From an uncultured delta proteobacterium (GTDB lineage Bacteria; Desulfobacterota; RBG-13-43-22): a stretch of DNA of 64,000 nucleotides. Under the pieces are notes generated by a model. The model had not been told where the DNA came from. It did no database searches and saw only the letters and a list, made by a program, of their open reading frames with translations. A program made the position numbers and the translations under genes. The DNA lies in contig CAVUPH010000014.1 in assembly GCA_963743305.1 (NCBI GenBank), positions 256,001 through 320,000 on the forward strand, given 5' to 3'. Shown piece after piece: positions 1,513 through 53,537 of this stretch; positions within the stretch are counted from its first letter, which is position 1; the number at the start of each line of letters is the position of its first letter.

Positions 1513-3132
1513 ATGCGTCATCTCTTCAAAGGCTGCAATAACCATCTGCTCATCTTATTGAGTTATTCCCTTTTGACTTTTCTCTTTACCTATCCTTTAC
1601 CTGTTCAAATGGGAACATCCCTTTATGGGCATGAATTGGTCGGCTTCAATGTCGACCCCTATGCCGAGATGGAACGTTTCCAAAGGGTCAAACAAACCTT
1701 TCTGGCCACCGGAAAGCTTTGGTTTTCTCCTTTTATCCACCCCCTGGTGGCAGTTCCCGGAGCACTCTTAACCGAGGCTTTTGATGAGGTTGTTGCTTTT
1801 AATCTATTACTCCTAATCAGTTTTCCTCTGGCCGGGTTTTTTACTTACCTCCTCGCGTATCAGCTTACTCAAAAACCCTTCCCTTCCTTTTTTGCCGGCC
1901 TGGTTTATTCCTTTTCCCCTTACCACTGGGTCCATGCCTATTATCATTTGAGCCTTTCTCAGATCCAGTGGTTCCCCCTCTATTTGTTGAGCCTTATTCT
2001 GTTTTCCCAAAAAAAGTCTTTTCCCCGAGGCCTCCTGGTTATGGGTTCTCTGCTCGTCCTGGTCTTGACCAACTACTATTATGCCCTCTTCGGCCTGCTC
2101 CTGACCATTCTGTTTATCCTCTATCACGGGGGGTTCCTTTATGTGAACCGGGGTCAGAAGGTTTTCCCGCACGCTTCTTTCTGGGTCCTGCTGGGAGTCT
2201 TGACTTTGGCCGGCCTGCTATTCTCATTATATTTCTATAATCATCTGGTGCTGATTTACCATAACCTGCCCTCTTTCAGCGCCCGTTACCCGGATCTCTT
2301 TCGGTACGGCTCCCGACCCTGGGGATTTATTGTCCCACCCCAAGACAACCCCTTCTTAGGCTGGATTGGAAAGAACTACATCCATTCCCGACTGGAAGGG
2401 GGGACTTTGGTCGAGCATACCTTGTACCTGGGGTTGGTCCCCCTGCTCTTGTCCATTCTGGCAGTATATAGCGGGCTCCGGGGAAAACCAAAGCCCTTCG
2501 CTCAAAGTCCTTCCTATTATCTCGGCTTTTTCGGAATCCTATTCATCTTGGCCCTTATTTTTTCCCGGCCTCCGCTGACCACCGTTGGGGGGTTGAAGAT
2601 TCCCCTGCCGGCCTACTACCTTTACCCGGTCTTCCCCATGTTCCGTTCCTATGCCCGCTTCGGCCTTTTGGCCTATCTGGCCCTGGCCCTTCTGGCGGCG
2701 GGCGGCCTCACCCTGCTCCAGACCCGTTGGCCCAAAAACTATTGGATTCCGGCTTTAGCCTTTCTTTTGCTGGTCATCGAATATGCCAATCTTCCCCCCT
2801 GGCGGTACCGGCCCATCCTCCCCACCCAAGCCCATCGGTATCTTGCTGAAAAGGTTAGGGATGTGAAAGTGGTCGATTATTTTCCACAAAAATTTTATGA
2901 CCTCCCGCCCATCCGCAAGCGGATGAACAACCATTTGCTGACGGGCCGGGAAATGGCGGCCTTTGCCCTGGTCAATCTTTCTCGGCCTGACCTCTTCCCA
3001 AGACTACGCCTCCAAGGAGTATCTTATGCCATCTTCCCTCCCGATCGCCTCGGACTTTTAGGTGAGAAAGGGCCCCCTCCGGTGATGCGTTTCCCGGATT
3101 CGGTTCTCTTCCGAATCGATCCCTTCCCTTAA
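1513..3132 (+). CDS. Polytopic membrane protein, YfhO/GT-C glycosyltransferase-like
   Basis: 539 aa with many TM helices. Motifs AGLVYSFSPYH, LYLG and FRSYARF resemble the GT-C/YfhO-like family. Confidence 0.6.
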   Translation: MRHLFKGCNNHLLILLSYSLLTFLFTYPLPVQMGTSLYGHELVGFNVDPYAEMERFQRVKQTFLATGKLWFSPFIHPLVAVPGALLTEAFDEVVAFNLLLLISFPLAGFFTYLLAYQLTQKPFPSFFAGLVYSFSPYHWVHAYYHLSLSQIQWFPLYLLSLILFSQKKSFPRGLLVMGSLLVLVLTNYYYALFGLLLTILFILYHGGFLYVNRGQKVFPHASFWVLLGVLTLAGLLFSLYFYNHLVLIYHNLPSFSARYPDLFRYGSRPWGFIVPPQDNPFLGWIGKNYIHSRLEGGTLVEHTLYLGLVPLLLSILAVYSGLRGKPKPFAQSPSYYLGFFGILFILALIFSRPPLTTVGGLKIPLPAYYLYPVFPMFRSYARFGLLAYLALALLAAGGLTLLQTRWPKNYWIPALAFLLLVIEYANLPPWRYRPILPTQAHRYLAEKVRDVKVVDYFPQKFYDLPPIRKRMNNHLLTGREMAAFALVNLSRPDLFPRLRLQGVSYAIFPPDRLGLLGEKGPPPVMRFPDSVLFRIDPFP

Positions 3133-3154: not shown

Positions 3155-3184
3155 TTGACAGCCTTAAGCGGATCTTCCTACTAT
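3155..3184 (+). promoter_or_regulatory. Sigma70-type promoter upstream of the RRE operon
   Basis: TTGACA (3155-3160), 18-nt spacer, TACTAT (3179-3184). Confidence 0.55.
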
Positions 3185-3357: not shown

Positions 3358-4503
3358 ATGCCCGACTATCGACCCAGGATGGATCTGGAATCCGTACTCT
3401 TGGACGACGAATTAATGATCTTTGATCCGGTCCGCGACGAAACCCATATCTTAAACGAAACCGCTGCCGAGATCTGGCGGTTGCTGACCGAGAAAAAATC
3501 GTTGCCCGAAATATTGAATCATTTTTTCGAACACCATGGGACTGAGGACAAGGAAGACCTCCGGAAAATTCTTCAAAGTACCTTGATCCGATTTAATCAA
3601 AAAGGTCTCCTGATCCCAACAGGCCCCTCCAAGTCAAAACAAGAGAAAGACGCTGAACTTGAGGACGCCTTGTCCCGGCAGGAGCGACTGCTGTCCGAAA
3701 CCCCCGACGATCCCCTGGTACTCGGCAACCTGGGGGTTCTCTATATTCAATCGGGTCGCTGGCCGGAGGCCGAAGCGTTACTGGTTCGGGCCCGGGGGCT
3801 GGAACCGACTAATGCAGCCTTGGCCTTTAACCTGGCATCCCTTTGGCATCGCCTGGATCGGTCCGCGGAGGCCTGGGAAATACTGGAAAGAGTCGACTCC
3901 CAGCATCCCGGCAATGTTCACCTCCTGAGCCTTTCCGGAAAGATATTGACGGCCTTGCGCCGTTTGGACAGCGCCGAAGATAAATTCCTTCAAGCCTTGG
4001 CCATTAATCCGGAATTACTCAATCTGTACAATGAACTGGCTTTGGTCTACCTCCTGCTGGACCAACCGGAGGCGGCGGAAGCCCAACTCACGGCAGCCCT
4101 CAAACGATCCCAAGTTTATTCGGATACTTTCCGGAACCTGGGAAACCTCCGTTTGAAAGAAAACAATCCGAAGGCCGCGGAAGGGTATTTCCGGCAGGCA
4201 CTGGAATTAGATCCCGGAGACGTTTTGGCCCGGTATGCATTGGCCTGGATTTATTTCCAGCGGAGGGAGTTCGGCCAAGCGGTTCAGGAAGCGGAGTCCT
4301 GTCTTCAGCAAAGTCCGACCTGGCTGCTTCCCTATGAATTCTTGGTTCAGGTTTATCAAACCCGGGGAGATCGGTTCCAGGCCCTGTTGGTCTATAGCCG
4401 CGTCCGTAGGGCCGTCCCGGATTTCAGTCGGCAAGAGTTCCCTTTCCTGGCGACCCTGGAGCGGGCAGTCCTTAAAAATACCCCTGAGAATAAAAGGCGT
4501 TAA
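3358..4503 (+). CDS. PqqD-family RiPP recognition element fused to TPR repeats
   Basis: N-terminal LDDELMIFDPVRDETHILNETAAEIWRLL...FNQKGLL is a PqqD/RRE signature. The remainder is TPR repeats (LGNLGVLY, AEGYFRQALELDP). Confidence 0.85.
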   Translation: MPDYRPRMDLESVLLDDELMIFDPVRDETHILNETAAEIWRLLTEKKSLPEILNHFFEHHGTEDKEDLRKILQSTLIRFNQKGLLIPTGPSKSKQEKDAELEDALSRQERLLSETPDDPLVLGNLGVLYIQSGRWPEAEALLVRARGLEPTNAALAFNLASLWHRLDRSAEAWEILERVDSQHPGNVHLLSLSGKILTALRRLDSAEDKFLQALAINPELLNLYNELALVYLLLDQPEAAEAQLTAALKRSQVYSDTFRNLGNLRLKENNPKAAEGYFRQALELDPGDVLARYALAWIYFQRREFGQAVQEAESCLQQSPTWLLPYEFLVQVYQTRGDRFQALLVYSRVRRAVPDFSRQEFPFLATLERAVLKNTPENKRR

Positions 4504-5773
4504 TGAAACCGGCTGTTGGTTTTATCCGCCACTTGTTTCAGTATATTGCCCAAGCGGATCGGATTGAGTCCTTTCAAGAATTTCTCGGGCGTCCAGAAAA
4601 TGGGCTCTCCTGGGGGGAGCTTTTCCATCTCCTTCAAATGCAGGGCCTCGCACCTTTCACCTATTACTCCCTGCGTGCCCCCGAGTGGCAGTCCCTACTC
4701 CCGGAAACTTTCCTGGCCCGATTAAAAAATACTTTTCGGGAAACCAGCCTCCAAAATTTCTTCCTTCAGCGGGAATTGAAGCGCCTCAACGAACATTTTG
4801 ATCTAGCCCGCTTGATCGTGGTCCCCCTTAAGGGGGCCAGTCTCATCAACCGGCTCTATCCGCTGCCCGGTCTTCGCCCCATGCAGGATATCGACCTGCT
4901 GATTCATGACCGGGACTGGGAAAAGGTCAAGCGGGTTCTGCTTACCGCCGGATATCAACCCCTCTCCGATCTGCCCGAAAAATGGGTTAAGGGTTTTCAT
5001 TTTCATGCCGCCTTTATCCTGCCGGAGCGTAACTTGGTGGTGGAAGTCCACTGGAACTTGACGGATGAACATCTCCTGCCGTTTGAATCAATGGAAGACC
5101 CTCTGGGACCGGGTCTATTTTTCTGAATCCACCAGATCCTGGTTTCTGGCTGACCGGGATCAGTTTCTTTACCAATGCCTGCACCTCTATAAGCACGGGA
5201 CCTTTAATGCCGTGCTGGCTCGGCACCCGATCGCTATGATCTCCTTTTCGAACCGCTAAGCGGAAACCGCCTGATCTGGTTTCTGGATCTCTGGCTGCTG
5301 ATGAAGGGTGAACCCCATCCGGACCTGGAAGGATTGATCCGGGAGGCGCAACACTGGCAAGTGGGACCGGCCCTCCATTCCGGCCTGGTCCTGACTCAAA
5401 ACTTATTCCAGCCCCTTCCTCAGTGGACTTGGCCTTTCGAGCAACCGCTGCCCGCTATCCCACGGGCAAAGTATTTCCTGCTGGCCCGTTTAGCGGACGG
5501 GAGCGGCCAGAGAAAAACGCTGGACCCTGGACCCTGCTTAAACGGCTGCAATCCCTCGATCAGCGCCTCCATGTCCGCCCTGTCCGGGCCCTGGATATGA
5601 TTGACCGCCTCCTTCCTTCATCGGACCAGCGACGGGAGTGGTCGGTGCGGCATTCCAGACGTTGGGTCCCTTTTTTATACCTGTTCGCTTTTCTCCAAGG
5701 ATTGGGTTTTGCTTTTTCCCGGGCCTCAATCCTGATTAAAATGAAAAGATACCGGGGCCTGAAAAAAACATGA
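4503..5773 (+). CDS. Nucleotidyltransferase, NTP_transf_5-like (frameshifted across ORFs 4503-5126, 5065-5259, 5301-5600, 5423-5773)
   Basis: VPLKGASL...YP.PGLRPMQDIDLLI, VEVHWNL, LYQCLHLYKH and LIWFLDLWLL occur in successive frames. Confidence 0.8.
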
Positions 5774-6951
5774 CCCTCTCCGATCAGCTTGCCAGGGAAA
5801 AATGGGGGGCACGGGCGGGCTATCGCCGGATTTATCTTTTTTTTGGCCACCCCATCGAGTTTTTAACCGACTCCGAGCCCGATTTCAGCGACTTTGATAC
5901 CATCTACCGCCGGTTCCAAAGGGGTCCGGAACACCATTCCTTTAAAGAGGAGATAAATCCTCTTTTTCTTTTGCGTGAGCGGAAGCATTCCGGCTATCTG
6001 CTCTATTTGAATAATCGGCTCTTCCAGGTCCCTGCTCCAACTAATCGGTTAGAGCTGTTTATGTATTTGCTCAATTACCTTTTGGATCGGACAGAGAATT
6101 TCTTTATGGTACACGGGGCGGCCCTGGCGGATCTGGACCATGGACTGATTATCGCCGCCCCTTCCGGTAGGGGAAAGTCCACCTTGACCTTGGAACTCCT
6201 AACCCGGGGAAAAAAATTTCTCTCCGACGAACTGGCCTTGATTTCCGTCCAGGACGGAGGGATCCAGGCCTTTCCCCGCGCCCTGGCCGTCAGCCGGGAA
6301 AATCTGAACAACGTTTTGTCCCGGAGAGGCGAAAGATTCCGTAAATTTTTGCCGGCCCTGGGGCGGGAAGGCCGGATGATGTTCGATGTGGAGGATCTTT
6401 TCCCCGGCCAGGTGGCCACGCACTGCCAACTCCGGAATATAGTTTTTGTCGAGCCCGCGACCCTGACCAAATCGGTAGCAAGCGGCATCCCCCTGGAGAT
6501 CGGGTTCACCGCCCTTCCCGAGGGCCTGTGCCGGACAATGATGGATATTCCGGCAATAAAAAAAGTGGATCAAATCCAGGCATTGCCCTACCCCATCCTT
6601 CGCCTGACCTGTCAAGCAGAAACAGCCCTGATGGCCCAGATCCAGGAGGTAGCGGCGACGCAGGGGGTGGGGATCTGCAGTTATTACCCCGAGGGGAAGG
6701 AAGGGATCGATTACCTGGCCACCCCGGACTTGATTAAATTGAAACCCTCGTCCGGGATCACCACCCTGCTCCGCTATGTCTTAAACATCCCGGCGCTCAC
6801 CCGTTCCTTCAGCGATTCGTCCGGCGGACGTCAGCGCCTCCTGTTTCGATTGGCCCAGACCACCCGAGGCGTTCAGTTTTATCGGCTCACACCGGGAATT
6901 CTTTCCCAAATGACGGACTTGATCGATGGAATTGCCCGGAGGGCATCTTAA
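5770..6951 (+). CDS. HPr-kinase-related P-loop kinase
   Basis: VHGAAL...APSGRGKSTL...FLSDELA...AFPR motif set of HprK-related kinases. ATGA overlap with the upstream gene. Confidence 0.8.
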   Translation: MTLSDQLAREKWGARAGYRRIYLFFGHPIEFLTDSEPDFSDFDTIYRRFQRGPEHHSFKEEINPLFLLRERKHSGYLLYLNNRLFQVPAPTNRLELFMYLLNYLLDRTENFFMVHGAALADLDHGLIIAAPSGRGKSTLTLELLTRGKKFLSDELALISVQDGGIQAFPRALAVSRENLNNVLSRRGERFRKFLPALGREGRMMFDVEDLFPGQVATHCQLRNIVFVEPATLTKSVASGIPLEIGFTALPEGLCRTMMDIPAIKKVDQIQALPYPILRLTCQAETALMAQIQEVAATQGVGICSYYPEGKEGIDYLATPDLIKLKPSSGITTLLRYVLNIPALTRSFSDSSGGRQRLLFRLAQTTRGVQFYRLTPGILSQMTDLIDGIARRAS

Positions 6952-6985
6952 TGGACGGTAATGGAGGATTGTTCGCGAGGTTATC

Positions 6986-7576
6986 ATGATTGACTTCGCC
7001 GGAATCAGGGAGGAATCGGTTTCCGCCCTCCTGGCCGATTATCAGGTCCAGGGCCGGGAACAATGGTTTCCGATCCGGGGTCGAAGCATGAGACCCTTAT
7101 TACGGGAGGGGGATGAAATCCAGGTCCGTTTCTGCTTCCCGGAAAACATTCGGAAAGGGGACCTGGCCGTCTTTTGGGAAGGAAGGGTTTTGAAAGCCCA
7201 CCGGATCCTGGATATCTTCAAAACATCCCAAGACATCCTCTTTCTGGAAAAAGGAGACAGCAACCCTACCGCCAGCTATATTCCTTCTTCCCGGATCAAG
7301 GGCCTGGTTCAGGCCGTTCGGAAACCATGGGGGGTGGTTGGGTTGGATCGCGCCTGTTGGCGCTGGTGGAATCGGATGGTGTCCAGATCCGGGTATGGTT
7401 TTATCCGTGCCTTTGCTTTCTTCCCTTCCCCAGAAAAAGGAAAAACCGGTTCTCCCAGCGCTTACGGGCCATTCTGGGGATACCGGTCCTGGATCTATTT
7501 GCTCTTGTTCTTTCCTCTTTTCGAAGAAAGAATTCGAGCCTTTTTCATTTCTCGTTTTAACAGGGCGGGGAGATGA
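6986..7576 (+). CDS. S24/S26-family peptidase (signal peptidase I-like, Ser-His type)
   Basis: GRSMRPLLREGD (Ser), AHRI (His), EKGDSN. Confidence 0.85.
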   Translation: MIDFAGIREESVSALLADYQVQGREQWFPIRGRSMRPLLREGDEIQVRFCFPENIRKGDLAVFWEGRVLKAHRILDIFKTSQDILFLEKGDSNPTASYIPSSRIKGLVQAVRKPWGVVGLDRACWRWWNRMVSRSGYGFIRAFAFFPSPEKGKTGSPSAYGPFWGYRSWIYLLLFFPLFEERIRAFFISRFNRAGR

Positions 7577-8018
7577 CACAGGAGCGGTGATTGCTGGAAT
7601 TCCCATCCTGATCCTGGATGAAAAAGTCAATAGTCACCGGTATCAGCTCCGGGGCCTCCAGTATTTCAACGCATTCCCCGGATTTCCCGCTCACACATGT
7701 CTGGTCGGTCAGCGGAGCGCAAGTCGTTGAAACACCGACCCGGCCGGTTTTGGCCGGGTAAATATAGGCATAGCATTTTTTTCCCCCCACCATGTCCCCG
7801 GCAATTTTCTGCCAGTCAAACTTCACCTGTATACGGGGCAGCGTTTCCGGGCATTCATTGTTGAAAGGGACTTCGGGGTTGCAGGTGAAGGTCGTCAGTT
7901 GAGGCGGGCTGTTGGTCGGAGGTCCATACTGGGTAATAATCGGGCCGACCAAATGGTCCAAGGTTGCCTGGTTATAGCTTTGAATCTCCGGTTTCAAAAA
8001 TACTTTCTTGGATTTCAT
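7557..8018 (-). CDS. Putative RiPP-type precursor: lasso-like leader plus Cys-rich core
   Basis: Starts MKSKKVFLKPEIQSY, similar to the lasso/RRE-binding [Y/F/W]xxPxL motif. 8 Cys in the rest. RBS-like GAGGAAG upstream. Convergent with the RRE operon. Confidence 0.6.
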   Translation of the reverse strand: MKSKKVFLKPEIQSYNQATLDHLVGPIITQYGPPTNSPPQLTTFTCNPEVPFNNECPETLPRIQVKFDWQKIAGDMVGGKKCYAYIYPAKTGRVGVSTTCAPLTDQTCVSGKSGECVEILEAPELIPVTIDFFIQDQDGNSSNHRSCVISPPC

Positions 8019-8177
8019 TCTTTCTTCCTCAACGATAAAATCACCAAAGGATCTGGTTTAGGGCATTGTGACTCAACTTATTAAATATATGCTCTAAAAT
8101 CAACCGGTTGTCAATAGAAAAAACCAGCGCCCTCCCCCCATTTCAAAAAATCTCGACGATTGCAGCGGACTCCAGAT

Positions 8178-8462
8178 CTAATGGAATTTCTGTTCTCCCT
8201 GGTCGACCACCTTTATCGGGCCATATTGCCGTTCATATTTTTCCAGGTTATCCTTCAGGGCATTGATAATCCTTCTTAAATTGCTGGGGCTGACCATAAT
8301 GCGAGAGACTAAAAACGTCCCGCTGGGGGAGTTCAAGAGCCAGTCTAGGATAAACTCCTCCGGGCTGTGGGAAGCGATCAAGGAATTGCTGTAACGGCCG
8401 CGCATCATTTCGTCGCCGGTATTGATTTGGATCTGCTGAGGGGGGTTGTTCGGGTTGGTCAT
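8178..8462 (-). CDS. DUF3467-family protein
   Basis: GRYSN...HSPEEFILDW...VSRIMVSP...YERQYGPI. Start moved to ATG 8462, preceded by AAGGAGG. Confidence 0.85.
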   Translation of the reverse strand: MTNPNNPPQQIQINTGDEMMRGRYSNSLIASHSPEEFILDWLLNSPSGTFLVSRIMVSPSNLRRIINALKDNLEKYERQYGPIKVVDQGEQKFH

Positions 8463-8608
8463 GGTGGCCTCCTTAATATAACCACTAAATTTTGTTAGCA
8501 TATGCTTTTATTACCTGATAAAAAAGAAAAAACGTTTATCCACCCTTCTTACCTGCGGTGAGGTCCTCGGTCTTTTCCGCGGCTATCGCCGATGAGCTTA
8601 TCTTAACC

Positions 8609-9499
8609 ATGCGACTCCGGCACCTTGTCGATTACCTGAAGTTGTTACGAATTCATCATTATGTCAAGAATGCTTTTATCTTTCTGCCGCTTTTTTTTGC
8701 CGGTGAATTTTTGTTGGTAGACTCCCTTATTTTAAATTTGCGCGCTTTTTTTGTCTTTTCTCTCGTTGCCAGCTCTATTTACATTTTTAACGACCTAAAG
8801 GATCTTCAGGAAGATCGCGAACATCCGACAAAACGACTGAGACCTCTGGCCAGCGGAGTTATTTCTCAATCGGCGGCCTGCCTTACCATGGCACTTTTGA
8901 TCAGCTTAGGGTTGGGTCTTTCCGCCTACTGGTTTCATTTTGATTTTCTGGCTTTAATTGTCTTTTATTTGATCATCAATATGGGTTACTCCCTAAAGTT
9001 GAAACATGTGCCCCTAGTGGATATAACGATCATCGCCTTCGGTTTCGTTATCAGACTTTTCGTCGGTTCAGTAACGGCCAAAGTGCCCTTGACCTTCTGG
9101 ATCATCACCCTGACCTTTCTACTCGCCTTGTTTCTCGGTTTCGCCAAAAGAAGGGATGATATCCTGATTTATAACCGCAGCCACAAGAAAACAAGAAAGA
9201 GCTTAGACGGGTATAATCTGGAATTTGTAAACGCAGGAATGGTGGTGGTTGCCGGAACAATGATCGTTTCCTATTTTATGTATACCCTATCGCCGCAGAC
9301 GATCTCAAAATTGGGCACAGATAAGCTCTATCTGACAACCCTATTCGTTATCCTAGGTACGCTAAGGTATCTCCAAAAAAGCTTCGTTGAAGAAGAGAGT
9401 GGATCCCCGACAAAGATATTACTGAAGGACTTTTTTTTGCAGACCACGATTTTCCTGTGGTTATTCTCCTTTACGGTAATCCTTTATCTGAGGCGGTAG
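8609..9499 (+). CDS. UbiA-family prenyltransferase, decaprenyl-phosphate phosphoribosyltransferase-like
   Basis: LRIHHYVKNAFIF, NDLKDLQEDREHPTKRLRPLASG, YSLKLKH...D, KRRDD. Confidence 0.85.
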   Translation: MRLRHLVDYLKLLRIHHYVKNAFIFLPLFFAGEFLLVDSLILNLRAFFVFSLVASSIYIFNDLKDLQEDREHPTKRLRPLASGVISQSAACLTMALLISLGLGLSAYWFHFDFLALIVFYLIINMGYSLKLKHVPLVDITIIAFGFVIRLFVGSVTAKVPLTFWIITLTFLLALFLGFAKRRDDILIYNRSHKKTRKSLDGYNLEFVNAGMVVVAGTMIVSYFMYTLSPQTISKLGTDKLYLTTLFVILGTLRYLQKSFVEEESGSPTKILLKDFFLQTTIFLWLFSFTVILYLRR

Positions 9500-9501
9500 G
9501 A

Positions 9502-10593
9502 ATGGCAAAATCGGTGGTAGCGGTCATCAAGAGTACGCCAGGTCAGGTCCTTTCAGATATCGGAGAACTGATGGATCAGGCCGCCTTCCGCAGTTTACTG
9601 TTGAAGGAGGTCGTCACCATTTTGAAGGACAATATTTCATGGCATTTCCCTTTTCTGAGCGCCAATACCACGCCTTGGCAGCTTGAGGGGGTCATCAGGG
9701 CGCTAAAAAAAGCAGGCTACGAGGAGGTCGTTGCTGTCCACAATAATACGGTTGTTACCAATCCCTATAAAGGCGGGACGTTGAACAGGCTTGGCCCGGT
9801 GTATCGCCGCTATGGAATCAAGGAACTCTACAATTTTCTACCCGCGGATACAAAATGGGTAACCTACCGGCCCAAGACAAAAATGAAGATTCTGGACAAG
9901 CTCTATCCCGAGGGCATCCGTATACCCGACTATTTCATCGGCAAAAACATCATCCACCTTCCTACCGTCAAGACCCACATTTATACCACAACCACGGGCG
10001 CCATGAAAAATGCTTTCGGGGGTCTTTTAAATACAAAAAGGCACTACACCCATAGCTGGATCCACGAGACTCTCGTCGATCTGCTGGCCATTCAGAAGGA
10101 GATCCACACCGGCATATTCGCCGTCATGGATGGAACAATCTGCGGCAACGGTCCGGGTCCTCGGACGATGATCCCCGTCCAGAAGGATTATCTTCTGGCC
10201 AGCGGCGACAGCGTGGCCATTGATGCTGTGGCCGCAAAAATGATGGGTTTTGACCCCATGGGCATTCCCTATATTCGCCTGGCTCACGAAGCGGGTTTGG
10301 GTTGCGGAAAGCCCGAGGAGATTGAAGTGGTCGGAGAGGATGTTTCCCGAGTAAATTTCGGCTTTTCCGTCGGAGACAATATGGCCAGCAAGGTAGGAAA
10401 TTTGTTTTGGTTCGGGGCACTAAAGTCTGTTCAGAAATCCTTTTTCCGGACACCCCTGGTGTATGCCTTCATTTTCGGCTCCTTCCTCTACCATGACTAC
10501 CTGTGGTGGCCGTTCAAGGGCAAACAGATCCAGAAAGGGACGGCCAAAGGGACGAGCTGGGGCAAACTTTTTGGTTCTTACGCCGGCGAATAG
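9502..10593 (+). CDS. DUF362 domain protein
   Basis: LKDNISWH, LPTVKTH...TGAMKNAFG, GNGP, DSVAIDAVAAKMMGFDP. Confidence 0.85.
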   Translation: MAKSVVAVIKSTPGQVLSDIGELMDQAAFRSLLLKEVVTILKDNISWHFPFLSANTTPWQLEGVIRALKKAGYEEVVAVHNNTVVTNPYKGGTLNRLGPVYRRYGIKELYNFLPADTKWVTYRPKTKMKILDKLYPEGIRIPDYFIGKNIIHLPTVKTHIYTTTTGAMKNAFGGLLNTKRHYTHSWIHETLVDLLAIQKEIHTGIFAVMDGTICGNGPGPRTMIPVQKDYLLASGDSVAIDAVAAKMMGFDPMGIPYIRLAHEAGLGCGKPEEIEVVGEDVSRVNFGFSVGDNMASKVGNLFWFGALKSVQKSFFRTPLVYAFIFGSFLYHDYLWWPFKGKQIQKGTAKGTSWGKLFGSYAGE

Positions 10594-10855: not shown

Positions 10856-13800
10856 ATGAACCTAAAAAATTCACAACCTGAAAATAAAGGGGTGGTCAAG
10901 CGCTGGATTCCCCGAAAACCGGACGGCCAAAGACAACGGCTACGGCAACCCCGGGTTATACTAGCAGTAGTCGCGTTTCTTCTCTTAAGCCTTCCTTACC
11001 TGGCGGGGGCCACCACGACCATCAACGAACAGTTCAGTCCGGACGTGATCAATCAGGGCGATGCGTCTCTCTATACCATTTCGATCACTAACGATGATAC
11101 GATTAATCTCACCAGTGCCATGGTGACGGTCTTCCTCGACAATACCACAGCCGCCCCCAACACCTCGGGCGGTCACATAACCATCGCCAGCGGGACGGTC
11201 GTCGACAATACCTGCGGTTTTTCTGTGGACAGTGCGGGTGCCGGAACGAGCAAGATCGTGCTGACCGGCGGAACGATTCCTGCGGGCTCGCCGGCCACTC
11301 CCTCGGTCTGCACCTTCTCCCTGGAGGTCACCTCCGTCACATTAAGCACATACCATGCGGTCATCCCGGCTAACACGACCCCGGATGCCACTACTTCCGG
11401 GTATGCGGCCACGGGGAATTCCATTATCGTCCATAACACGACATCCGCCGACATCACCCTGCAAGTGAACGCCCTCTCAGCGCCCACCGGCAACAAGGCC
11501 TTCTCGCCCTCTCCGGCGGTCGCCGGCGATCCGATCACGCTGACCATTACGGTCAGCAATCCCAATGCCACCAGCACGATGCCGCTGACGACCTTCACCG
11601 ACAGCCTGCCTGCAGGCATGGTCGTGGCCGGCACGCCCGGTGCTTCCGTCAACTGCACCGGAGCGGGGGCCGTCAATGGGGCCTTTGCACCCCTGGCCAA
11701 CGATACCTCGCTCACGCTTACTGGCGGAACGATAGGGCAGGGAGGTGCCTGCACCCTCTCCGTCCAGGTGGTTGTTCCGACCATCTCCGGCACTACCCAG
11801 AGCTTCGACAATAGTCTGGGAAGCGGCGCCATCGGAAATAGCCGCGGTCTTACCAGCCCGGCCTTTAATAGGACCCTGACCGTCAATTCTCCCATCAATG
11901 TGACCAAGAGTTTCGCCACGTCTCCGATACCGGCGGGCCAGCCTTCCCGGATGACGATCACTATTACCAACAACAGTACGGTCAATGCCCTGGACATTAC
12001 GCAATTCAACGACCATCTGACCGGCACCACGCTGAAGGTCCTCAATCCCTCCAGTTCCCCGGTTGCCGGCATTACGCCCAGCGTCACTTGCGACGGCACT
12101 GGATCTGTCAACGGCTCACTCACCTACACCGTGGACACACTGGATTCCACCTTGACCCTCACCAACGCCAAAGCCGGTCCCAAATCCGGCGGCACCGGCA
12201 AGTGCATAATCATCGCTGACCTGACCTCCACGGTGGATGGAGCGCATACCAATACCCTCCCTGCCGACGCAGTAGTCAGCACCGGCGGTTACCACAGCCC
12301 CAGTGCCTCCGATACCCTGACGGTCAACGCCCAATTGACGGTGGATAAGACCGTATCGGTGAACCAGGTGGCTCCCGGACAGTGGACGAGGTTCACGGTC
12401 ACCATTTACAATTGGTCCGGCGCCCCCGTCACGAATCTGAGCTTCCGCGACGACCTGCCCTCAAGCGGCGGGAGCCAGATGGTGCTCGACGGCGGCAATC
12501 CGATCTCTTCTTTAGGTTGTACCGGTGGGACCTGGACAGGGGCTCCCGGCGAGGCGACGCTTCAGTGGAGCAACGGGACGGTAGCGGGCGGCTCCGGCAC
12601 CTCGCCGGGGATCTGCACGATCGTCTTTCAGACCAGGCTGCCTATTTCCACCCCAACGGGACTTACCTTCGGCAACCAGATTCCAGCTTGGGATGGCACC
12701 CATGGTGCAGGGGGGGACGGTCCCGGCGGACCCGTAGTCAACCCGGCATCCAGCCCTGCTGCCAACGTATTGAGTGTCGATGCGGTGGCGATCACCAAGA
12801 CCTTTGCCCCGGCCTCCATCGCCCAGGGCGGAATTTCGACCCTGACCCTAACCATCCGCAACCGGGTGGTAACCGGCGGCCTGAGCAATGTGAACCTAAC
12901 CGACAATTTCCCGGCAGGCATCACGCTGGCCGCCAATCCCGCCGCGACCAATAGCTGTAATGGCACACTCCAAGCATTTCCCGGAGACAGCAAACTGATC
13001 TTGACCGACGGCAGCTTAGCCGCGCGGCCCAACGACGGGCAGGAAACGACCTGCACGATTACCGCGAGGGTTACCGGTACGACTGTTGGGACCTACAATA
13101 ACACTATCTCGGGGGCGACGTATGGCCTGGTGCCGACGACGATACCCGACAGCAATACGGCCACGCTGACCATCGCGACCGGTCTATCCGGCGCCAAGTC
13201 CTTCAACCCGACCAGCGTCACTTCAGGCGGCACCTCGCGGGTCACGATTACCGTGACTAACGGCTCCAACGGCGATCTCACCAATGTGTCGGTGGATGAC
13301 AATACCTTCGGCGCAGGCCTGACCGTGGCTAATCCGGCCAATGCCGCCACGAGCTGTCCGGGCTCTCCGACGATGGTCGCCAACCCGGGGGCAACCCGTG
13401 CGCAGTTGCTGGGCGCTACCCTGGCGGCCGGCGCGAGTTGCGATTTTTCATTCGATGCCGAGACCAGCGGCGCCGGTCCCTGGAGCAACACTATCCCCAG
13501 CGGCAAGATCACGAGCGCCGAGGGCCCGGCCAACACCGCGGCCATCTCAGCAGCACTCAGCGCTGTTTCTACCCAGATCAACATCAACAAGTCTTTCAAC
13601 CCGGTCGTTGTGACCGGCGGCGTCCCCTCCACCCTAACCCTGACTCTGACTAACCCTTCCAATACAACCCTGCACGGCATCGGCTTCACCGATGTATTTC
13701 CGACCGGGATCCAGGTATATTCCGTTCCCGCCGTGACTTCAACCTGCCCCGGCGGAAGGGTCACCGCCATCCCCGGTGACGGCCAAGTCAGCCTCGCCGG

Positions 13801-16800
13801 CGCAACCCTGGCCTCCGGCAGTACCTGTGTCGTTACCCTTCAAACGACTTCGGTCAAATTCCTTAACCTGACCAACAATATACCGGCCGGCGCCATCGAG
13901 AGCTTCGAGGGCTATACGAACCCGCTGTTGGTCTCGGCCACGCTTTCGACCCTGCAGGGACTGGGCGTCATGAAGGCCTTCTCGCCGGCCTATGTGACCC
14001 CTGCTACGGTCACAAAACTCAAGATGTGGCTGGTCAGCACCTTTGACCCCAACGCCCCGACCCCCCTGACCCTTACCGGCGTCTCCTATACCGATACCCT
14101 TCCCGCGAATGTTTTTGTATCGGCTGCGCCGGATGCCACCACCACCTGTCCAGGACCCGGTGGCGTCGGAAGCGCCACCATAACCGCGAATCCAGGAGCT
14201 GCCCTTATCACGGTCTCAGATGCCCACATCGTCCCCGGCGCGGTCTGCGAGATTTCGGTTAATGTCGTAGCTCCCGGCTCCATCGGCACCTACACCAATA
14301 TTATCCCGGCCGATGCCATCACCACCCTCCAGGGACCGACGAACAGCGAACCCGCCACCGCCAGGCTCTATGTAGTCAATCAGCCCACGATCAACAAGGC
14401 CTTTAGTCCCAAGGTGGTATCCGTGGGCGGCACAAGCACATTAACTGTCACCATAAACAACGGCGCGGGCATTCCGCTGACCGGTCTCTCCCTTACCGAT
14501 ACTTTACCGGCGGGACTGGCCATTGCAGGCAATCCGGCCGTGGCCACTACATGCTCCAACGGAAGCGTTACCGCTGATCCCGGCAGTGACGCTCTCTCGC
14601 TCAGCGGCGCCGTCGTCCCGGCAAACGGCTCATGCACCTTTTCTGCCAGGGTTGTGGCCAATTCCCCTGGGGTCTTTATCAATAATATCAACGCCGGGGA
14701 GTTGGTCAACAACGAGGGCCTCACCAATAGCGGTCCGGCCAACGACACCCTGACGGCGCGCCTGACGCCCACGGTGAATAAAACCGTTCAACCCGGTCTC
14801 GATCGCCTCCGGCAGCTCCTCGACCCTGACTATAACGGTCGGCAACAGCAATGGCGGGCCGATTACACTTACCGCGCCTCTGGTCGACGCCCTGCCGGGC
14901 AACGTGGTGGTAGCCGATACGCCCAATGCCAGTACTACCTGCGGTCCGGGTACGCTCTCCGCCAGTCCGGGGGACATTTCCCTCAGCTACGCCGGGGATA
15001 TCCCTGATGGCGGCTGCACAATATCCGTCGACGTGACTTCCAGCGTCTGCGGTGTGCATACCAACAGTATAGCGGCGGGACAACTTCAGACCTCTGTCGG
15101 AAACAACCAGGATCCTGCCTTTGCCGACTTGGGGGCTTGTAGCGCGCTCGTCCCCACAATAAGCAAGTCCTTCAGCCCCGGCACGATCCCGGTGAACGGA
15201 ACCTCTACGCTGACCATAACCCTGGCCAACCCGAATGCCTCGGCCTTGACGCTTTCTTCGGATTTTTCCGACAACCTGCCGGGTACCGTGCGGGTGGCGT
15301 CAACGCCCGCGGCCGGGACCACCTGTCCGAACGGCACCGTTACCGCCGTTGCCGATGCGACCGGCATCACCCTCCAACGCGGCAGCGGCCCCTTCACCCA
15401 GATCCCGGCTTCCGGTAGTTGCACCGTCACCGTTAACGTCACCTCGGCGGCGGAAGGCAGTTATACGAATACCATCCTGGTCGGTGACCTGCAGACCGAC
15501 GGCGGCAGCAACAGCCAGCCGGCAATAGCGTCCCTGGTGGTGCAGGCACCCATCCCGCCGACAGTGGATAAATCCTTTACTCCCAATACGATCAACCCCG
15601 GCGGCCTCTCGACGCTGACCATCTCCTTGGGCAACAGCAATGGCGGATCAATAAATCTGACCGCCAATTTCATTGATACGCTTCCTGCCGGAGTGACCGT
15701 GGCCGCTACGCCGAACATCCGCGGCACCTGTACGATCGGCAGTATCACGGCCGGAGCCGGCACCGGTATTATTTCCTACGCGACAGGCGCGTCCATTCCC
15801 TCCGGCGGTTGTACAATCCTGGTGGATGTGACGGCGACCAGCAATGCGGGTTCACCCTATACCAATACCATCCCGGTCGATGCCTTGCAGACCAGTGCGG
15901 GCAACAATGGCGCCTCGGCAACGGATAGCCTCTTCGTGAACCCGCCCCAGCCGCCGTCGGTCAGCAAGTTCTTCTCGGCGCCAAAATTTCTCTCTGCCGA
16001 CACGGTGACGCTCACCCTCGCCCTGGGCAACGGCAATAGTACTGCTGCCACCTTGACAGCCGATCTCGTCGACACGCTGCCCTCGGGTCTTATTATCGCT
16101 ACGCCCAACGGTTTAGTGACCAACTGCGCCGGTACGGTGCTGGCACCGGCCGGAGGCAGTACCCTGACTTACCAGAGCGGCGGCACTATCCCGGGCAACG
16201 GGGGCTGCGCTATCTCGGTGACCCTCAAAGCGGCGGATGGCTTACCCCATCACCTGTTTACCAACACCATTCCCGCCGGGGCCTTACAGACGAACTTCGG
16301 CGACCAATGCCGTCGCCTTCCACCGCCACCGTCCAGGTCCTGGTCCGGCCGACGGTCGCCAAGACCTTTAACCCTTCGACCATCAAGTACAACCAAAATT
16401 CAACCCTGACTCTCACGCTTGGGCAATATCAACGATGTCCCGATCACGCTGACTCAGGACCTGGTCGATACCCTGCCGGCGAACGTCTTCCTGGCCACGC
16501 CGGCGACCATCGGCGGCACCTGTATTAGCACCAATCCCGGCAAAGTAATCGCCGCCAACGGCGGCGGCACAGTCACCTACCAGAGCGGGGCCACCATACC
16601 CGCGGGCGGTTGCACCATCACGGTCCCCGTGACCTCCACCACCATGGGCGATTACACCAATACCCTCAACGTCGACGATCTCAAGACCGATGCCGGGACC
16701 AACCCCGCGCCGGGCTCGGCGCAACTGATCGTGCTGGCCCCGCCGACGTTGAGCAAGGCCTTCTCCCCGACGTACATCATCGCCGGCGCGCCCTCGACCC

Positions 16801-19800
16801 TGACGCTGACGCTCGGCAATCCGAATACGCACGTTTTGACGCTGCAATCGGCCCTTTCCGACAATCTGCCCGGCATCATTAAAGTAGCGAATCCGCCGTC
16901 CGTCGGCGGCACCTGCCCAGGCGCCGTCACCGCGGTTGCGGGCGCGGGGACCATTACCTACGCCAGTGGGGCGACTATCCCGAGCGGAGGATGCACCATC
17001 ACCGTGAATGTGGCCGGCTCAACAGCCGGCTTCTACACCAACACGATTTCGTCCGGAGGGCTCGTCACCGAGGCAGGAATCAATGCCGCGGCTGCCACAG
17101 ACACGCTTACTGTTGCCTCACCCTCTATGACCAAAGTCGATCACCAGCGTGAGTCCCGGTCCGAATTCGCCTAATGCCACGGTCGGAGATACGGTAACCT
17201 ATTCCATCCAGGTGACCCTCCCGGAGGTGAGCGCCCCGGGGCTGGTCTTGACCGACACGCTTCCGGCGGGATATCAGTATGTCAACGGATCGGTGAGCGT
17301 CGTGTTGGGCTCGTTCAACGGTACGGTGACGCCGACGCCGACGGTGACACCTTCCGGCTTCGCCCACTCGGGGCAGACCGTAACCATCGATTTCGGTGAC
17401 GTTACGGTAAACACCGATGGCAACTCTTCGAATAACACCTTCGGCGTCACCCTCCAGGCATTGGTAATCGATGATTCCGCCAACGCCGCCCTCGCTTCGG
17501 CCCAGACCAAGCCCAATAGCGTCAGCCTGAACTACACCGGGAAGCCGGCGGGTGCGATCTCCGCGTCGGTGAACCAACCAATTCAGGAGCCACGGCTGAC
17601 CATCACCAAGGGCATGGCCCCGGCCAGCCCTGACGCCGGAACTACCGTAACCGTGACCCTGACCGTCAACAACACCGGCACCGCACCGGCCTATGGCGTT
17701 GTCGTCACCGACGACCTCTCCGCCATGACCCCGGAATCGCCCTTCGATCTGGCTACCGTAGCGGAACTTTCCACCCCTGCGGGTTTTACCTACAGTTTTG
17801 CCGCCAATACCGTTTCCTATACCGCCAACGCCTCCCAGACGATTGCCGCGGGGGGCTCCAAGGTGTTTACCTTTACGGCGATCGTAAAAAACACGGTCGT
17901 GACCGGTATTACCTACACCAACAATGTCTCGGTCACCGGCGACGGACAGGACGGGGCGGTAAACCCCCAGCGCGTCACTTCCCAGAACAACAGCGCCACG
18001 CTTTCTTCGGCGGCCTCTTCGGTGAGCAAGGTACTGACCACCACCTCGGAGACTGATACCGGCAACCCCAATGTGGCGGTCGGCGAGGTCGTCACTTGGA
18101 CCGCGACCTTTACCATCCCCGAGGGTGTGACCAAAAATGTGATCTTGGCCGATGTCCTGCCTGCAGGATTGACCTATCTGACCGGCTCGGCCACGCTGCA
18201 GAAGACCACGGCCAGCCTGTTCTGTTCGGATGGCGGGCCAATTGCAGCTGCCATCAATGGCGCCGTCGCCAATACCCCCGTTGCCGTGACCATGAGCGGA
18301 TCGACCGGGGAGATCCAGGTGGCCCTCGGCGACGTGACGAACTCGGCCAATGATCCGGCCAATGAGCAATACATCCTCGTCCTGCAGTCGGTCGTCGAGA
18401 ACAGCGCCGGGAACAACGCCGGCACCGTCCTCACTAACCTGGGAAGGCTTCGCTACGATAACTATACCGGCAACCAGCAGACCGTCACATCGACCAACCA
18501 GAACGTCACCGTCGTGGAACCCGCGATCACCATCAACAAGACTGTGAACCCCGCCGCCGCGGGTGGTGGCGACACCGTTACCTACACCCTCGTAGTAACG
18601 AACACCGGCGGGGCAAACCGCGCGCCGGCCTACGACCTGGTCATTACCGATCTGCTGCCGGCCGATCTGAACACACCGGCCATCGCCTGCCCCGGGGCGG
18701 GTTGCAACGCCGGCGCGACCGGCGCGACCCTGACCGCATCCTTTGGCGGCGAACACCCTGAATGCCACCATCGACCAACTCGATCCTGGTGAAGTGGCAA
18801 CCTTCACCTATACGGCGAAGCTCAATGATTCTGTTGCCGTACGGCAAATCCATTACCAATACCGCTACCTATACGGCTACAAGCCTGCCCGGCACCAACG
18901 GCACAGGCGGGGTGACCCCCGGCACGGCCGGCAGCGGGACGGGAGAAAGGACCGGGACGGGCGGCCTAAACGACCTTGACCGGCTCCGACCCGGCGACGG
19001 TTACCGTCAATACGCCGACAATCTCTAAATCCGTTGTCGGCCTCAAGAGCTACTACGCCATCGGCGAGGCCGCCACCTACCGCGTTACCCTGCCAGTCCC
19101 GGTGGGAACATCCACCAATTTTACCCTAAGCGATACCATCCCGGCGAACCTCGCCTACCAAAGCGGCTCCCTGAATGTTACGCTCCCTACCGGGGCCACA
19201 GCGAGCAACAGTCCGCTGGCCGACACCAACCCCGCCTTCTTTACCCTCGCCGGAAATGTCCTGACGCTGCACTTCGGCACACTCACTGCGCCCACGGCGG
19301 GCAATGTGACGGTCGATTTCAATGCCGTTGTCCAGAATGTGATTGCCTCCCAGGACGGCACGACCTTTACCAATTCCGCCACCCTTGCCTTTGACAACCC
19401 CGCCGGCGGCACGATCACGGTCGGCCCGGTAACGAACAACCAGGTGCGGGTAGGCGAGCCGAACCTTACCCTGGCCAAGGCCATAAGCGCTGGATCGGCC
19501 GGTTCAGACGCCGGCAACACCGTCTCGTGGCGTATCGACCTCCAAAACACCGGCCACACCACGGCCTATCAGGTCAACTGGAGCGATGTGCTGCCGGATG
19601 GTCTGTATCAGATCACCAATGTGGGGCTTTCGATCAGCGGTCAGGTCTACCTGAACGGGACTACGACCGCGCCGGTGGTGGGCGATGCTACGGTGAGCAC
19701 CACCACGCACACCCATGACACCTTAACGCTCAACCCGGTGCAGATCGATACGGGCGCGTCGCTGACCCTCACCTTTGATACCGTCGTAATGGATACGGTC

Positions 19801-25800: not shown

Positions 25801-26543
25801 CTCCTTCTTTGGTCATGGAAAAGCTGGCGGTACTGACCGAGGATTTTAACGGCGACGGGCTGGTGAACCCGGGGGAAGCAATCACCTATATCATTACCCT
25901 GCAGAATATCGGTTCCAGCGCTGCCGAGGATGTCCGTTTAAGCGATCCTTCACCGACCTTGACCAACATGATCTCTGGTTCGGTGACCTCGACTCACGGG
26001 GTAGTCTTATCGGAAAATCCGGTGACGGTCAATATCGGTCAGCTCAACCCCGGGGAGATAGTCATCGTTCGATTCCGGGCACGCATCCGTGCCGACGTAC
26101 CCAACGGCTCCTCCGTGCTGAATACGGCTACGGTTTCTCAGGCCGGGGGCGAACCGCTTCAAGCTCAGCAAACCACCTTGGTTTTAAGCGCTCCGGTAGT
26201 GGTCGGCTCCTTATGCGGTTCCGTTTATAAGGATTGTGACCAGGACGCCACGCGAGATCCACTGGAACGGGGCCTCAGCGGGGTAACCGTTCATTTGTTC
26301 CGGGCCAATGGGACCTGGATCGCCACCGCCACCACCAATTTCCTGGGCGTCTATCGCTTTAACGGTGTGCCCGAGGGAACCTATACGGTTCAGGAGGTGG
26401 TCCCCCAGGGGTATCTCCCTTCTACCCCGAAGGAATTGTCTGTGTCGGTCATCGAAGGGGGAACGTCTACGTCCAGCTTCGGGGTCCAAACCCAGAATAG
26501 TCCCTGCCAAAGAAGAATCTATCTGCCGATCATTGTGAATTAA
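10856..26543 (+). CDS. Giant secreted adhesin-like protein (~5,200 aa): tandem DUF11/isopeptide-type Ig-like domains and a C-terminal SdrD-B-like domain; about 8 frameshifts
   Basis: Signal peptide ...[19 protein letters not shown]. Dozens of K-x-F-x-P...LTITxxN...D-x-LP-x-G...N repeats continue across ORF breaks (e.g. [14 protein letters not shown] near 14786). C-terminal [27 protein letters not shown]...GVYRF...[10 protein letters not shown]. Confidence 0.85.
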
Positions 26544-36000: not shown

Positions 36001-37003
36001 GGCCGGTTTCAGGCTGAAGGATTGGAAAATTACCGAATTGCAGGGCCGGTTGCTCGGAAAAAATTTTCAATTCGTCAACCGGCCTAGTTTTCAAGCCCTG
36101 GGGAGCCCGGACCTGACGTTTAACGGGGCCCCGGACCAACTCCAAGTGAAGGGCAAGATTGAAATCCCTGAAGCCCTGATCACCAAAGATCTCATTCCGG
36201 GAATAAAAAAAGCCAGTCCCGATGTGGTGATCGTGGATGCCCCCCCGTCCCCCCCGGCGGGCCGGATTTATCCCCTCCAGGGCCTTATCCATCTGGTCTT
36301 TGGAGAAAAAGTCCGGGTAAAAGTCGGCGGGCTGGATACCCTGCTCAAGGGAAATATCCAGGTGGCTCTCCACCAAACCAAGGACCTGACCGCCGAAGGG
36401 GAGATCCGCGCCGACCAGGGTACTTACCTCGTTCAGGGAACCAAACTGAACATCACCCGGGGACGGTTGATTTTTCAAGGCCCCCCCGATAACCCGGTCC
36501 TGGATATCCTGGCCCTGCGGACCATCCGGGGAAGTCAACGCCTGGAAAACTATGTGGATGAGGTCAAAGCCGGCGTCGTGGTGACCGGGTCGATACGGTC
36601 GCCCCTGGTCCGGCTCTCTTCCCAGCCCGCCATGTCGGAGACGGAGGTGTTATCTTATATCTTATTCGGAAAACCCCTGGGACGCGGCGCCGACCAGCAG
36701 AACCTGGCGATTCTGGGCAAAGCGGCCCAGCTTCTTTTGGGAGATAAAATGGACAGCAGCCTGGTCAGCCGCCTGAAGCTGGATACCCTCGATATTCAAT
36801 CCGAAGGCGGGGATGTTTCCCAATCCATCGTTACTGTGGGCAAGTACCTCGACCCACGCCTCTACCTGGGTCTGGGGGGGTCCCTGTTCAGCAATACCTA
36901 TCAGGTCATACTGCGCTACGCCCTTACCCAGCGCTTGGAACTGGAAACCAGGGGGGGCACCCAGAGCGGCGGGGGCATTTATTATAAGGTGGATTTCGAG
37001 TAA
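33069..37003 (+). CDS. tamB: Translocation/assembly module TamB (frameshift near 35130)
   Basis: N-terminal TM anchor, AsmA-like beta repeats, DUF490-type C-terminus (NPVLDILA, VLSYILFG, VGKYLDPRLYL). Confidence 0.9.
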
Positions 37004-53520: not shown

Positions 53521-53537
53521 TCGAAGAGGATCTGGAT

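Follow-up and report, generated by a model that had tools for sequence, protein, structure and literature searches.

We analyzed a 64,000-nucleotide (nt) stretch of DNA, hereafter the window, from an uncultured delta proteobacterium (assembly GCA_963743305.1, contig CAVUPH010000014.1, positions 256,001 to 320,000), with a focus on the gene cluster at positions 3358 to 8018. The cluster contains four genes on the plus strand, which code for a RiPP (ribosomally synthesized, post-translationally modified peptide) recognition element (RRE) fused to tetratricopeptide repeats (TPR), a nucleotidyltransferase, an HprK-like kinase and a signal-peptidase homolog of the S26 family, and a convergent gene for a protein of 153 amino acids (aa). 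By analogy with the linear polyphosphorylated peptide (LPP) clusters of Bacillota (Popov et al., Nat Commun 2026, PMC13381572), we consider it fairly probable that the locus encodes a Gram-negative LPP pathway in divergent form, with the convergent 153-aa protein as its precursor. The features of the locus are as follows:

3155–3184, plus strand: candidate sigma-70-like promoter (TTGACA-18-TACTAT) upstream of the four-gene operon
3358–4503, plus strand: RRE-TPR gene, 381 aa, stop codon TAA
4503–5773, plus strand: nucleotidyltransferase gene with matches to PF14907 (LppN/PsmN-like), broken by four 1-nt insertions or deletions (indels)
5770–6951, plus strand: gene for an HprK-like P-loop kinase (LppK/PadeK/BsfK-like), 393 aa
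6986–7576, plus strand: gene for a soluble S26B (Sec11/SipW/archaeal-type) signal-peptidase homolog, 196 aa, candidate leader peptidase (LppS-like)
7557–8018, minus strand: candidate precursor gene, 153 aa, with a leader-like N-terminus, a proline-rich linker and a predicted eight-cysteine beta-sandwich
8093–8124, minus strand: conserved block with TTGACA (8114–8109), candidate promoter of the 153-aa gene

The operon genes are joined by overlaps of 1 nt and 4 nt, followed by a 34-nt gap. The nucleotide A4503 is common to the stop codon of the RRE-TPR gene and the start codon of the transferase gene (TAATG, 4501–4505), the transferase and kinase genes share an ATGA overlap at 5770–5773 in the raw sequence and in the map of open reading frames (ORFs), and the gap separates the kinase stop codon from the start of the S26-like gene. 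The tail of the latter and the end of the convergent 153-aa gene overlap by 20 nt.

A pattern scan of genome contigs returned one locus (L001) from 47 pattern matches. It belongs to a metagenome-assembled genome (MAG) of an uncultured delta proteobacterium, the sole related genome found, and is fully syntenic with the window, with all five cluster genes intact. The gene order in L001 is DUF6178, a 539-aa membrane protein, RRE-TPR, transferase, kinase, peptidase, the convergent 153-aa gene, DUF3467 and a giant DUF7933/DUF11 ORF. Apart from the transferase gene, all genes compared between the window and L001 had in-frame gaps only.

Two putative promoters are conserved between the loci. The candidate at 3155–3184, which has 10 of 12 matches in a consensus scan, is identical in L001, and the rest of that spacer is poorly conserved. 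We considered a hidden short precursor gene in this 226-nt spacer upstream of the operon, and rejected it because the spacer is not conserved outside the promoter-like block. The second block, at approximately 8093–8124 (coordinates derived from alignment columns 77–108), is also identical in L001, with diverged flanks. Since this separate promoter-like block lies upstream of the 153-aa gene, that gene is likely to form its own transcription unit, convergent to the operon.

A preliminary description of the locus had given these coordinates and junctions and had assigned families to the four operon genes, and both agree with our analysis. The first protein, predicted to carry an RRE, matched the PqqD domain PF05402 over residues 18–85 with 32.0 bits (cutoff 23.4); approximately 260 residues of TPR repeats come after it, with matches to many TPR families. 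The nucleotidyltransferase matched PF14907 (NTP_transf_5) with 121 bits over profile positions 4–149 in the first ORF, and over positions 159–196 in a second reading frame. The HPr-like kinase matched TIGR04352 (HprK_rel_A; E=5.7e-16, 58.4 bits, where the cutoff is 200). The S26 Ser-His peptidase matched TIGR02228, the archaeal-type signal peptidase I (E=3.2e-10, 40.1 bits, where the cutoff is 51.85), and SEC11C in structure 7p2q (E=0.0024), with the segments GRSMRP, AHRI and KGDSN aligned.

The RRE part of the first protein scored 34.2 bits against TIGR04353 ('HPr-rel-A system PqqD'), below the cutoff of 35. The full-length protein is 73% identical to its ortholog in L001, with a ratio of nonsynonymous to synonymous substitution rates (dN/dS) of 0.39. 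The probable role of the TPR extension is to scaffold the enzymes or a folded core. Co-folding of the RRE (residues 1–92) with the N-terminus of the candidate precursor (residues 1–45) gave a score of 0.50, as compared to 0.41 for a control with chain 1 replaced, and we weigh it neither for nor against binding. A direct partnership of RRE and kinase is supported by the existence of natural fusion-like proteins, such as a 458-aa protein from an Acidimicrobiales MAG (P0029) with PF05402 and a kinase match. A plasmid match from Methylobacterium tardum (H11) likewise consists of a single protein with a PqqD/RRE domain and an HprK-like kinase region.

The kinase also matched PF07475 (24.3 bits, below the cutoff of 33.3), and a profile of the kinase family matched the HPr kinase structure 1knx (E=1.6e-5) across the region with the histidine, the P-loop and the acidic pair. 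The corresponding residues, H115, SGxGKS at 132–137 and D153–E154, were invariant in 12 of 12 aligned sequences. The kinase search gave 31 matches, in identity tiers of 70–76%, 45–48% and approximately 25%; below the last tier, the likeness to named HprK-related kinase A proteins was confined to the level of the P-loop.

The preliminary description had taken the nucleotidyltransferase to be a single open gene, which is incorrect. In the window, the gene is split over four overlapping ORFs in three frames (4503–5126, 5065–5259, 5301–5600 and 5423–5773), with 1-nt indels relative to the L001 ortholog near positions 5081 (+1), 5225 (-1), 5502 (+1) and 5528 (+1). The ortholog is an intact protein of 422 aa that matches PF14907 with 162.5 bits over positions 4–248 of 249. 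All four indels fall in the 1.27-kb transferase gene, as compared to none in the remaining 3.4 kb of the cluster. The frame-corrected dN/dS of 0.27 between the window and L001 resembles that of the neighboring genes, and the breaks are therefore either recent or artefacts. Assembly indels are a plausible cause, since other genes in the window are also split, even though the concentration of four indels in this one cluster gene is striking.

Among these, an OtsA/OtsB fusion gene (40342–42593, minus strand) is divided into three ORFs, which cover GT20 positions 2–124, GT20 positions 126–467 with phosphatase positions 1–61, and phosphatase positions 58–214. The tamB gene (33069–37003, plus strand) consists of two overlapping ORFs, and an adhesin gene of the DUF7933 type (10856–18792, plus strand) of four; in L001, by comparison, it is a single open frame exceeding 2705 aa. 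An isolated ABC_tran fragment is located at 58806–59165 (plus strand). The split genes point either to an indel-prone assembly or to a pseudogene-rich genome.

With four frameshifts in one cluster gene and the OtsA/OtsB, TamB, DUF7933 and ABC fragments elsewhere, the locus might be a decaying, non-functional remnant in this organism, but we regard this as quite improbable. The other four genes have dN/dS values of 0.09–0.39 and no frame-disrupting gaps, the corrected transferase falls within the same range, and the L001 cluster is complete. Frameshifts as widespread as these may also be assembly errors. Moreover, deletion of lppN left the detected LPP products unaltered according to Popov et al. 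(PMC13381572), and N genes are missing from some of the related lasso clusters described, so that loss of the transferase need not inactivate the pathway.

The peptidase aligned with SEC11A and SEC11C over the SMxP serine box, the HR histidine box and the KGDxN box, and residues S34, H72 and D91 were invariant in all eight homologs (8/8). The position aligned with what we take to be the second Asp of the SEC11 'DD' pair is not an Asp in this protein. Unlike the Sec11, SipW and archaeal S26B enzymes, the protein has no detectable transmembrane anchor: by a crude test with a simple hydropathy window, the best 19-residue Kyte-Doolittle mean was 1.35, which is below 1.6. In a tblastn search against plasmids, all matches were to 'signal peptidase I' genes of haloarchaea (5 records). 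The top fold matches of the structure model were all to S24/S26 folds, with E values of 3e-3 or weaker, and add little support because the mean predicted local distance difference test (pLDDT) score of the model was 53. As a lead only, 27 of 30 ESM Atlas matches were in clusters carrying Peptidase_S24 (25–35% of the members in the top three clusters listed).

At 10856–26543 (plus strand), the window has three very large genes for adhesin-like proteins with DUF7933/DUF11 repeats. They also contain Gram-positive-pilin-like, SpaA and SdrD_B domains, here in a Gram-negative context (TamA/TamB at 31294–37003). Between the window and L001, the adhesin genes aligned with 60% identity and unreliable placement.

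As the adhesin-like genes with pilin-type domains begin 2.8 kb away, and as the best structural match of the low-confidence peptidase model was SipA of S. pyogenes, a signal-peptidase homolog needed for pilus polymerization, the S26-like protein could be a SipW-like signal peptidase or a pilus-assembly chaperone for the DUF11/DUF7933 adhesins, unrelated to the RRE and the kinase. This explanation seems far-fetched to us. A gap of 34 nt separates the peptidase gene from the kinase stop codon, in what is the same operon in both the window and L001, and the protein has no hydrophobic anchor. Its motifs (SM(R/Y/F)PL(I/L)REGD, HR and KGDxN) are also closer, as judged by eye only, to the soluble RRE-associated signal peptidase I (SpI) set in the supplement of Popov et al. 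(PMC13381572) than to the membrane-anchored SipW group.

The 153-aa ORF starts MKSKKVFLKPEIQ. It is 90% identical to its L001 counterpart at the amino-acid level with a dN/dS of 0.09, the lowest in the neighborhood, which argues that it is a real gene under strong purifying selection. No Pfam or NCBIfam family matched the protein. An exhaustive HMMER search of 1.84 billion representatives identified six proteins at E<=1e-3, three of them strong (E<=1e-30) and one a 137-aa relative with 33% identity; a word-indexed search also returned six proteins. The homologs fall into identity tiers of 85–90%, 51–53% and 33%. The 153-aa protein of the window is itself absent among the matches of the word-indexed search, and the kinase (P0001) and peptidase (P0043) of the window did appear among database matches. 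The gene was probably missed in the source annotation, perhaps through its overlap with the peptidase gene.

The preliminary description had also proposed an FxKPxI-type leader motif on this protein, and an FxxPxI motif is indeed present and kept in homologs down to 33% identity. The N-terminal pattern is F7xxP10xI12 ... G25P26xxxQ30Y31. In the family alignment, P10 and E11 are invariant and F7 and I12 near-invariant over the same range, position 14 is serine or threonine, G25-P26 and Q30-Y31 are invariant, and a proline-rich linker follows. The domain contains six invariant and two near-invariant cysteines; three of its serines (S113, S142 and S146) are invariant as well, and S/T14 belongs to the leader. 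AlphaFold2 predicted the protein with a mean pLDDT of 80; residues 1–35 were of low confidence, except for a helix at 17–24, and a confident beta-sandwich extended from approximately residue 40 to 149. Foldseek returned only generic immunoglobulin (Ig)-like beta-sandwiches (RhoGDI, LacZ domain, ASF1, UNC119 and NPC2; TM-scores 0.35–0.47), which gave no functional lead, and the ESM Atlas contained no usable match.

The motif [YFW]xxPx[LIV] within the first 20 residues was found in 5 of 257 six-frame ORFs of at least 60 aa in the window, and is on its own only mildly unusual. Among start sites near the cluster, the motif occurred at 18 of 477 in the window and at 9 of 441 in L001. Of the ORFs that stand alone, the 153-aa ORF alone has the motif in both genomes; apart from it, they share just one match, at an internal start codon of the transferase gene.

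When the preliminary description was written, no characterized product was known to it for such a gene set. This no longer applies, as the LPP family has been described by Popov et al. (PMC13381572). In their definition, an LPP cluster contains an SpI, an RRE of the discrete kind, a kinase resembling HprK, a nucleoside triphosphate (NTP) transferase that is uncharacterized, and an exporter resembling MsbA; the clusters are written lppA-K-B-S-D-N. The pathway was demonstrated experimentally in Paenibacillus and involves no cyclase. The precursors are 35–200 aa long, with a conserved N-terminus (YxxPxVLxHQxIxFETxxS) and variable C-termini. LppK adds one to four phosphates to Ser3 of the core, and LppS (S29/H68/D93) removes the 27-residue leader after Thr-1 only in the presence of the RRE protein LppB; in the crystal structure, Y-16 and P-13 of the leader occupy pockets of the RRE. 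The LPP clusters are located in capsule loci, their final product and role are reported as unknown, and only about a third of the clusters in that survey are tied to lasso enzymes (PMC13381572). Supplementary Data 1 of that study places nine SpI-like proteins from other phyla in cluster 3 of a sequence similarity network, two of them labelled delta proteobacteria; by our own count, an RRE classified as 'other' is nearby in four of the nine, and precursors are not determined for them in that table (PMC13381572). The cyclase-free, leader-directed kinase/S26 pathway of the preliminary description is thus well supported by analogy with this precedent, with the reservation that the transferase is frameshifted in the window.

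Following the LPP precedent, maturation might proceed in five steps. The PqqD/RRE domain of the RRE-TPR protein would bind F7-x-x-P10-x-I12 in the disordered N-terminus of the 153-aa protein. The HprK-like kinase would then phosphorylate a serine or threonine of the tethered substrate, possibly more than once, and the PF14907 enzyme, where intact, would add a further group to the phosphate. With the leader presented by the RRE, the soluble S26B peptidase (Ser34/His72/Asp91) would remove roughly the first 24–31 residues, cutting between ...[VI]24/G25-P26 and Q30-Y31. The cysteine-rich Ig-like domain would finally be released.

Several observations weigh against the locus being an LPP-type pathway with the 153-aa protein as its substrate. 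Both the kinase and the peptidase stay under the cutoffs curated for the models nearest to them in NCBIfam and Pfam, no RRE structure came up at E values up to 10 when the RRE was compared by phmmer with the sequences in PDB, and the transferase gene of the window is not intact. LPPs, first described in 2026, are regarded by Popov et al. as restricted to Bacillota (PMC13381572). No ABC (ATP-binding cassette) transporter was found between 1 and 27 kb of the window or in the L001 ORFs scanned; the nearest ABC domains in the window are at 52362–54293 and in the fragment at 58806–59165. The candidate leader agrees with the LPP consensus in the first six positions only (FxxPxI), after which it has ...L..[LE][VI]GPx[IT][TA]QY in place of LxHQxIxFETxxS. 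The spacing of the LPP leader, with the proline at -13, would place the cut at residues 22/23, and as these are poorly conserved the LPP cleavage site cannot be transferred; acceptors of the Ser3 type are not evident in the family either. The candidate precursor gene is furthermore convergent to the operon rather than a member of it, and has its own promoter-like block. Finally, all loci with evidence on gene context (L001 and the contigs of equal size described below) are close relatives, with at least 71% identity in peptidase or kinase, and the conserved adjacency is therefore weak evidence.

Taken together, the orientation and separate promoter-like block of the 153-aa gene, the shortness of the leader likeness to LPP and lasso leaders, the looseness of the motif and the narrow sampling of the adjacency would also fit an explanation in which the four-gene cassette is LPP-like and the 153-aa protein is not its substrate but a coincidental small Ig-like neighbor, the true precursor being a short peptide elsewhere or not recognized. 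In line with this, Supplementary Data 1 of Popov et al. has columns for precursors 'elsewhere in the genome' (PMC13381572). We nevertheless find this explanation unlikely. The motif persists in homologs with 33% identity, and the N-terminus that holds it is a predicted unstructured stretch before a folded domain; no further conserved motif-bearing ORF stands alone in the window or L001, and conservation is also lacking in the spacer upstream of the operon; and precursors of up to 200 aa are reported among the LPPs (PMC13381572).

The distribution of the families bears on the same question. The longest source contigs of kinase and 153-aa homologs were of the same size in two cases (55631 and 36829), as were those of a peptidase and a 153-aa homolog (3411) and those of a peptidase and a kinase homolog (176640), which suggests further co-occurrence of the kinase, peptidase and precursor genes. 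At greater depth, the parallel identity tiers of the kinase and precursor families, as read from sequence comparisons, are the only hint of co-distribution, and they too speak against a coincidental neighbor. The family is tiny in current databases, and its ecological weight is probably small.

The four genes could instead be the accessory or tailoring set of a lasso pathway, with the cyclase, the B2 protease and a short precursor encoded elsewhere in the genome; the window spans just 64 kb of a contig of 528,745 bp. In lasso clusters of the paeninodin, pseudomycoidin and Bsf types, tailoring is the task of HprK-like kinases and of transferases of the PF14907 family; on a Butyrivibrio plasmid among our matches (L003), a kinase and transferases form part of a classical lasso cluster, and more than half of the lpp-bearing bacteria surveyed by Popov et al. 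also encode lasso enzymes (PMC13381572). The preliminary description had reported that the window contains no asparagine-synthase-like cyclase, transglutaminase-like B2 protease or radical SAM enzyme, and no such domain was detected in its 107 translated ORFs; the 8 flanking ORFs scanned in L001 also lacked cyclase and B2 domains. Since a dedicated S26B peptidase occupies the place of B2 in the operon, and the same gene set works cyclase-free in the LPP system (PMC13381572), there is little to recommend a lasso assignment, which we judge highly improbable.

We return to the LPP-like pathway acting on the 153-aa protein. A more speculative extension, which we put forward tentatively and with some doubt, is that the LPP-type kinase/peptidase machine has been adapted in Gram-negatives to mature a folded, disulfide-capable Ig-like protein in place of a peptide. 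The TPR region would then be an adaptor for a protein-sized substrate, and the product might exit the cell or act at the envelope without a dedicated ABC exporter or a Sec signal. In that case, the reach of RRE-dependent chemistry would grow from peptides to small proteins, and LPPs would occur beyond the Bacillota.

On the upstream side, the cluster is directly preceded by a gene for a 539-aa polytopic membrane protein with many hydrophobic segments (1513–3132, plus strand). It is kept in L001 (5649–7268) with 83% amino-acid identity and a dN/dS of 0.22, and had no Pfam, NCBIfam, PADLOC or PDB sequence match. It might be part of the system, for example as an exporter or a glycosyltransferase. 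On the other side, a DUF3467 gene (8178–8501, minus strand; 12643–12948 in L001; dN/dS 0.11), which is highly conserved, shares its strand with the 153-aa gene and lies upstream of it, and a G-run/T-run and the promoter-like block lie between the two. It is followed at 8558–10593 by a UbiA gene, similar to decaprenyl-phosphate phosphoribosyltransferase (NF008977, 249 bits, above the cutoff), and a DUF362 gene. This stretch has a GC content of 0.43, as compared to about 0.54, and is missing from L001, in which the adhesin gene comes directly after DUF3467; it is probably a recent insertion. PADLOC gave no credible match to a defense system.

Among published systems, the phosphorylated lasso clusters (paeninodin PadeK, pseudomycoidin PsmK/PsmN and BsfK/BsfB1) share with the locus an RRE, an HprK-like kinase, a leader motif of the YxxPxL type and a PF14907 homolog, which in those clusters acts on phosphoserine. 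PadeK and ThcoK are reported to phosphorylate the C-terminal serine of the precursor and PsmN to add a hexose to the phosphate (PMC9266682, PMC8498205), and in the deltaproteobacterial lasso cluster of Bradymonas, the RRE BsfB1 is described as speeding up phosphorylation by BsfK (Duan et al. 2023, PMC10368454). Unlike these clusters, the locus has neither an asparagine-synthase-like cyclase nor a B2 cysteine protease, and the substrate candidate has 153 aa as compared to a core of approximately 20 aa. According to the RRE-Finder study, about half of the roughly 8,000 matches to lasso-type discrete RREs are without cyclase and peptidase (PMC7470986).

Among named models, those of the NCBIfam 'HPr-rel-A system' (TIGR04352, TIGR04353 and an adjacent nucleotidyltransferase) come nearest to the kinase and the RRE, and neither protein reaches their cutoffs; our literature search on this system found no paper mentioning 'HprK-related'. 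A locus on a Vibrio alfacsensis plasmid (L002, 6596–7699) resembles the cluster in having a PqqD-like ORF, a kinase and a nucleotidyltransferase, with P-loop and LSDELA motifs that are alike by eye. It differs in that it has no S26 gene, that its kinase has 298 aa as compared to 393 aa, and that its PqqD-like ORF, which is unannotated and located at 7445–7699 ahead of the kinase, is unfused and only 84 aa long. A 274-aa cysteine-rich protein with a twin-arginine-like N-terminus is encoded upstream of this ORF.

The LPP clusters are the closest in gene content. Both have an RRE, a kinase of the HprK-like type, an NTP transferase of the PF14907 type and a soluble archaeal-type S26 peptidase with a Ser/His/Asp triad, and no macrolactam cyclase was found in the window. 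The 153-aa candidate falls within the range of 35–200 aa and has basic residues followed by [Y/F]xxPx[V/I] at its N-terminus, and the locus, like the LPP clusters, is situated in a neighborhood of cell-surface genes. The locus differs from the LPP clusters in that its RRE carries fused TPR repeats and is not discrete, that no MsbA-like exporter is adjacent, that the core is a predicted eight-cysteine beta-sandwich, that the transferase is frameshifted in the window, and that the host is Gram-negative (TamA/TamB in the window; L001 from a delta proteobacterium) and thus outside the Bacillota. Because the LPP gene set has an experimental precedent (Popov et al. 2026), we conclude that the kind of system is already known and that the variant is new: Gram-negative, with a fused RRE-TPR protein, no linked exporter and a protein-sized core. 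If this assignment is correct, a Gram-negative relative would indicate that the module of RRE, HprK-like kinase and S26 peptidase is older or more mobile than reported. With a substrate very different from the first, the locus would also allow a second approach to the purpose of the phosphate tag, to the way in which the RRE retargets an S26 peptidase, and to the question of whether RRE-guided enzymes can act on whole protein domains.

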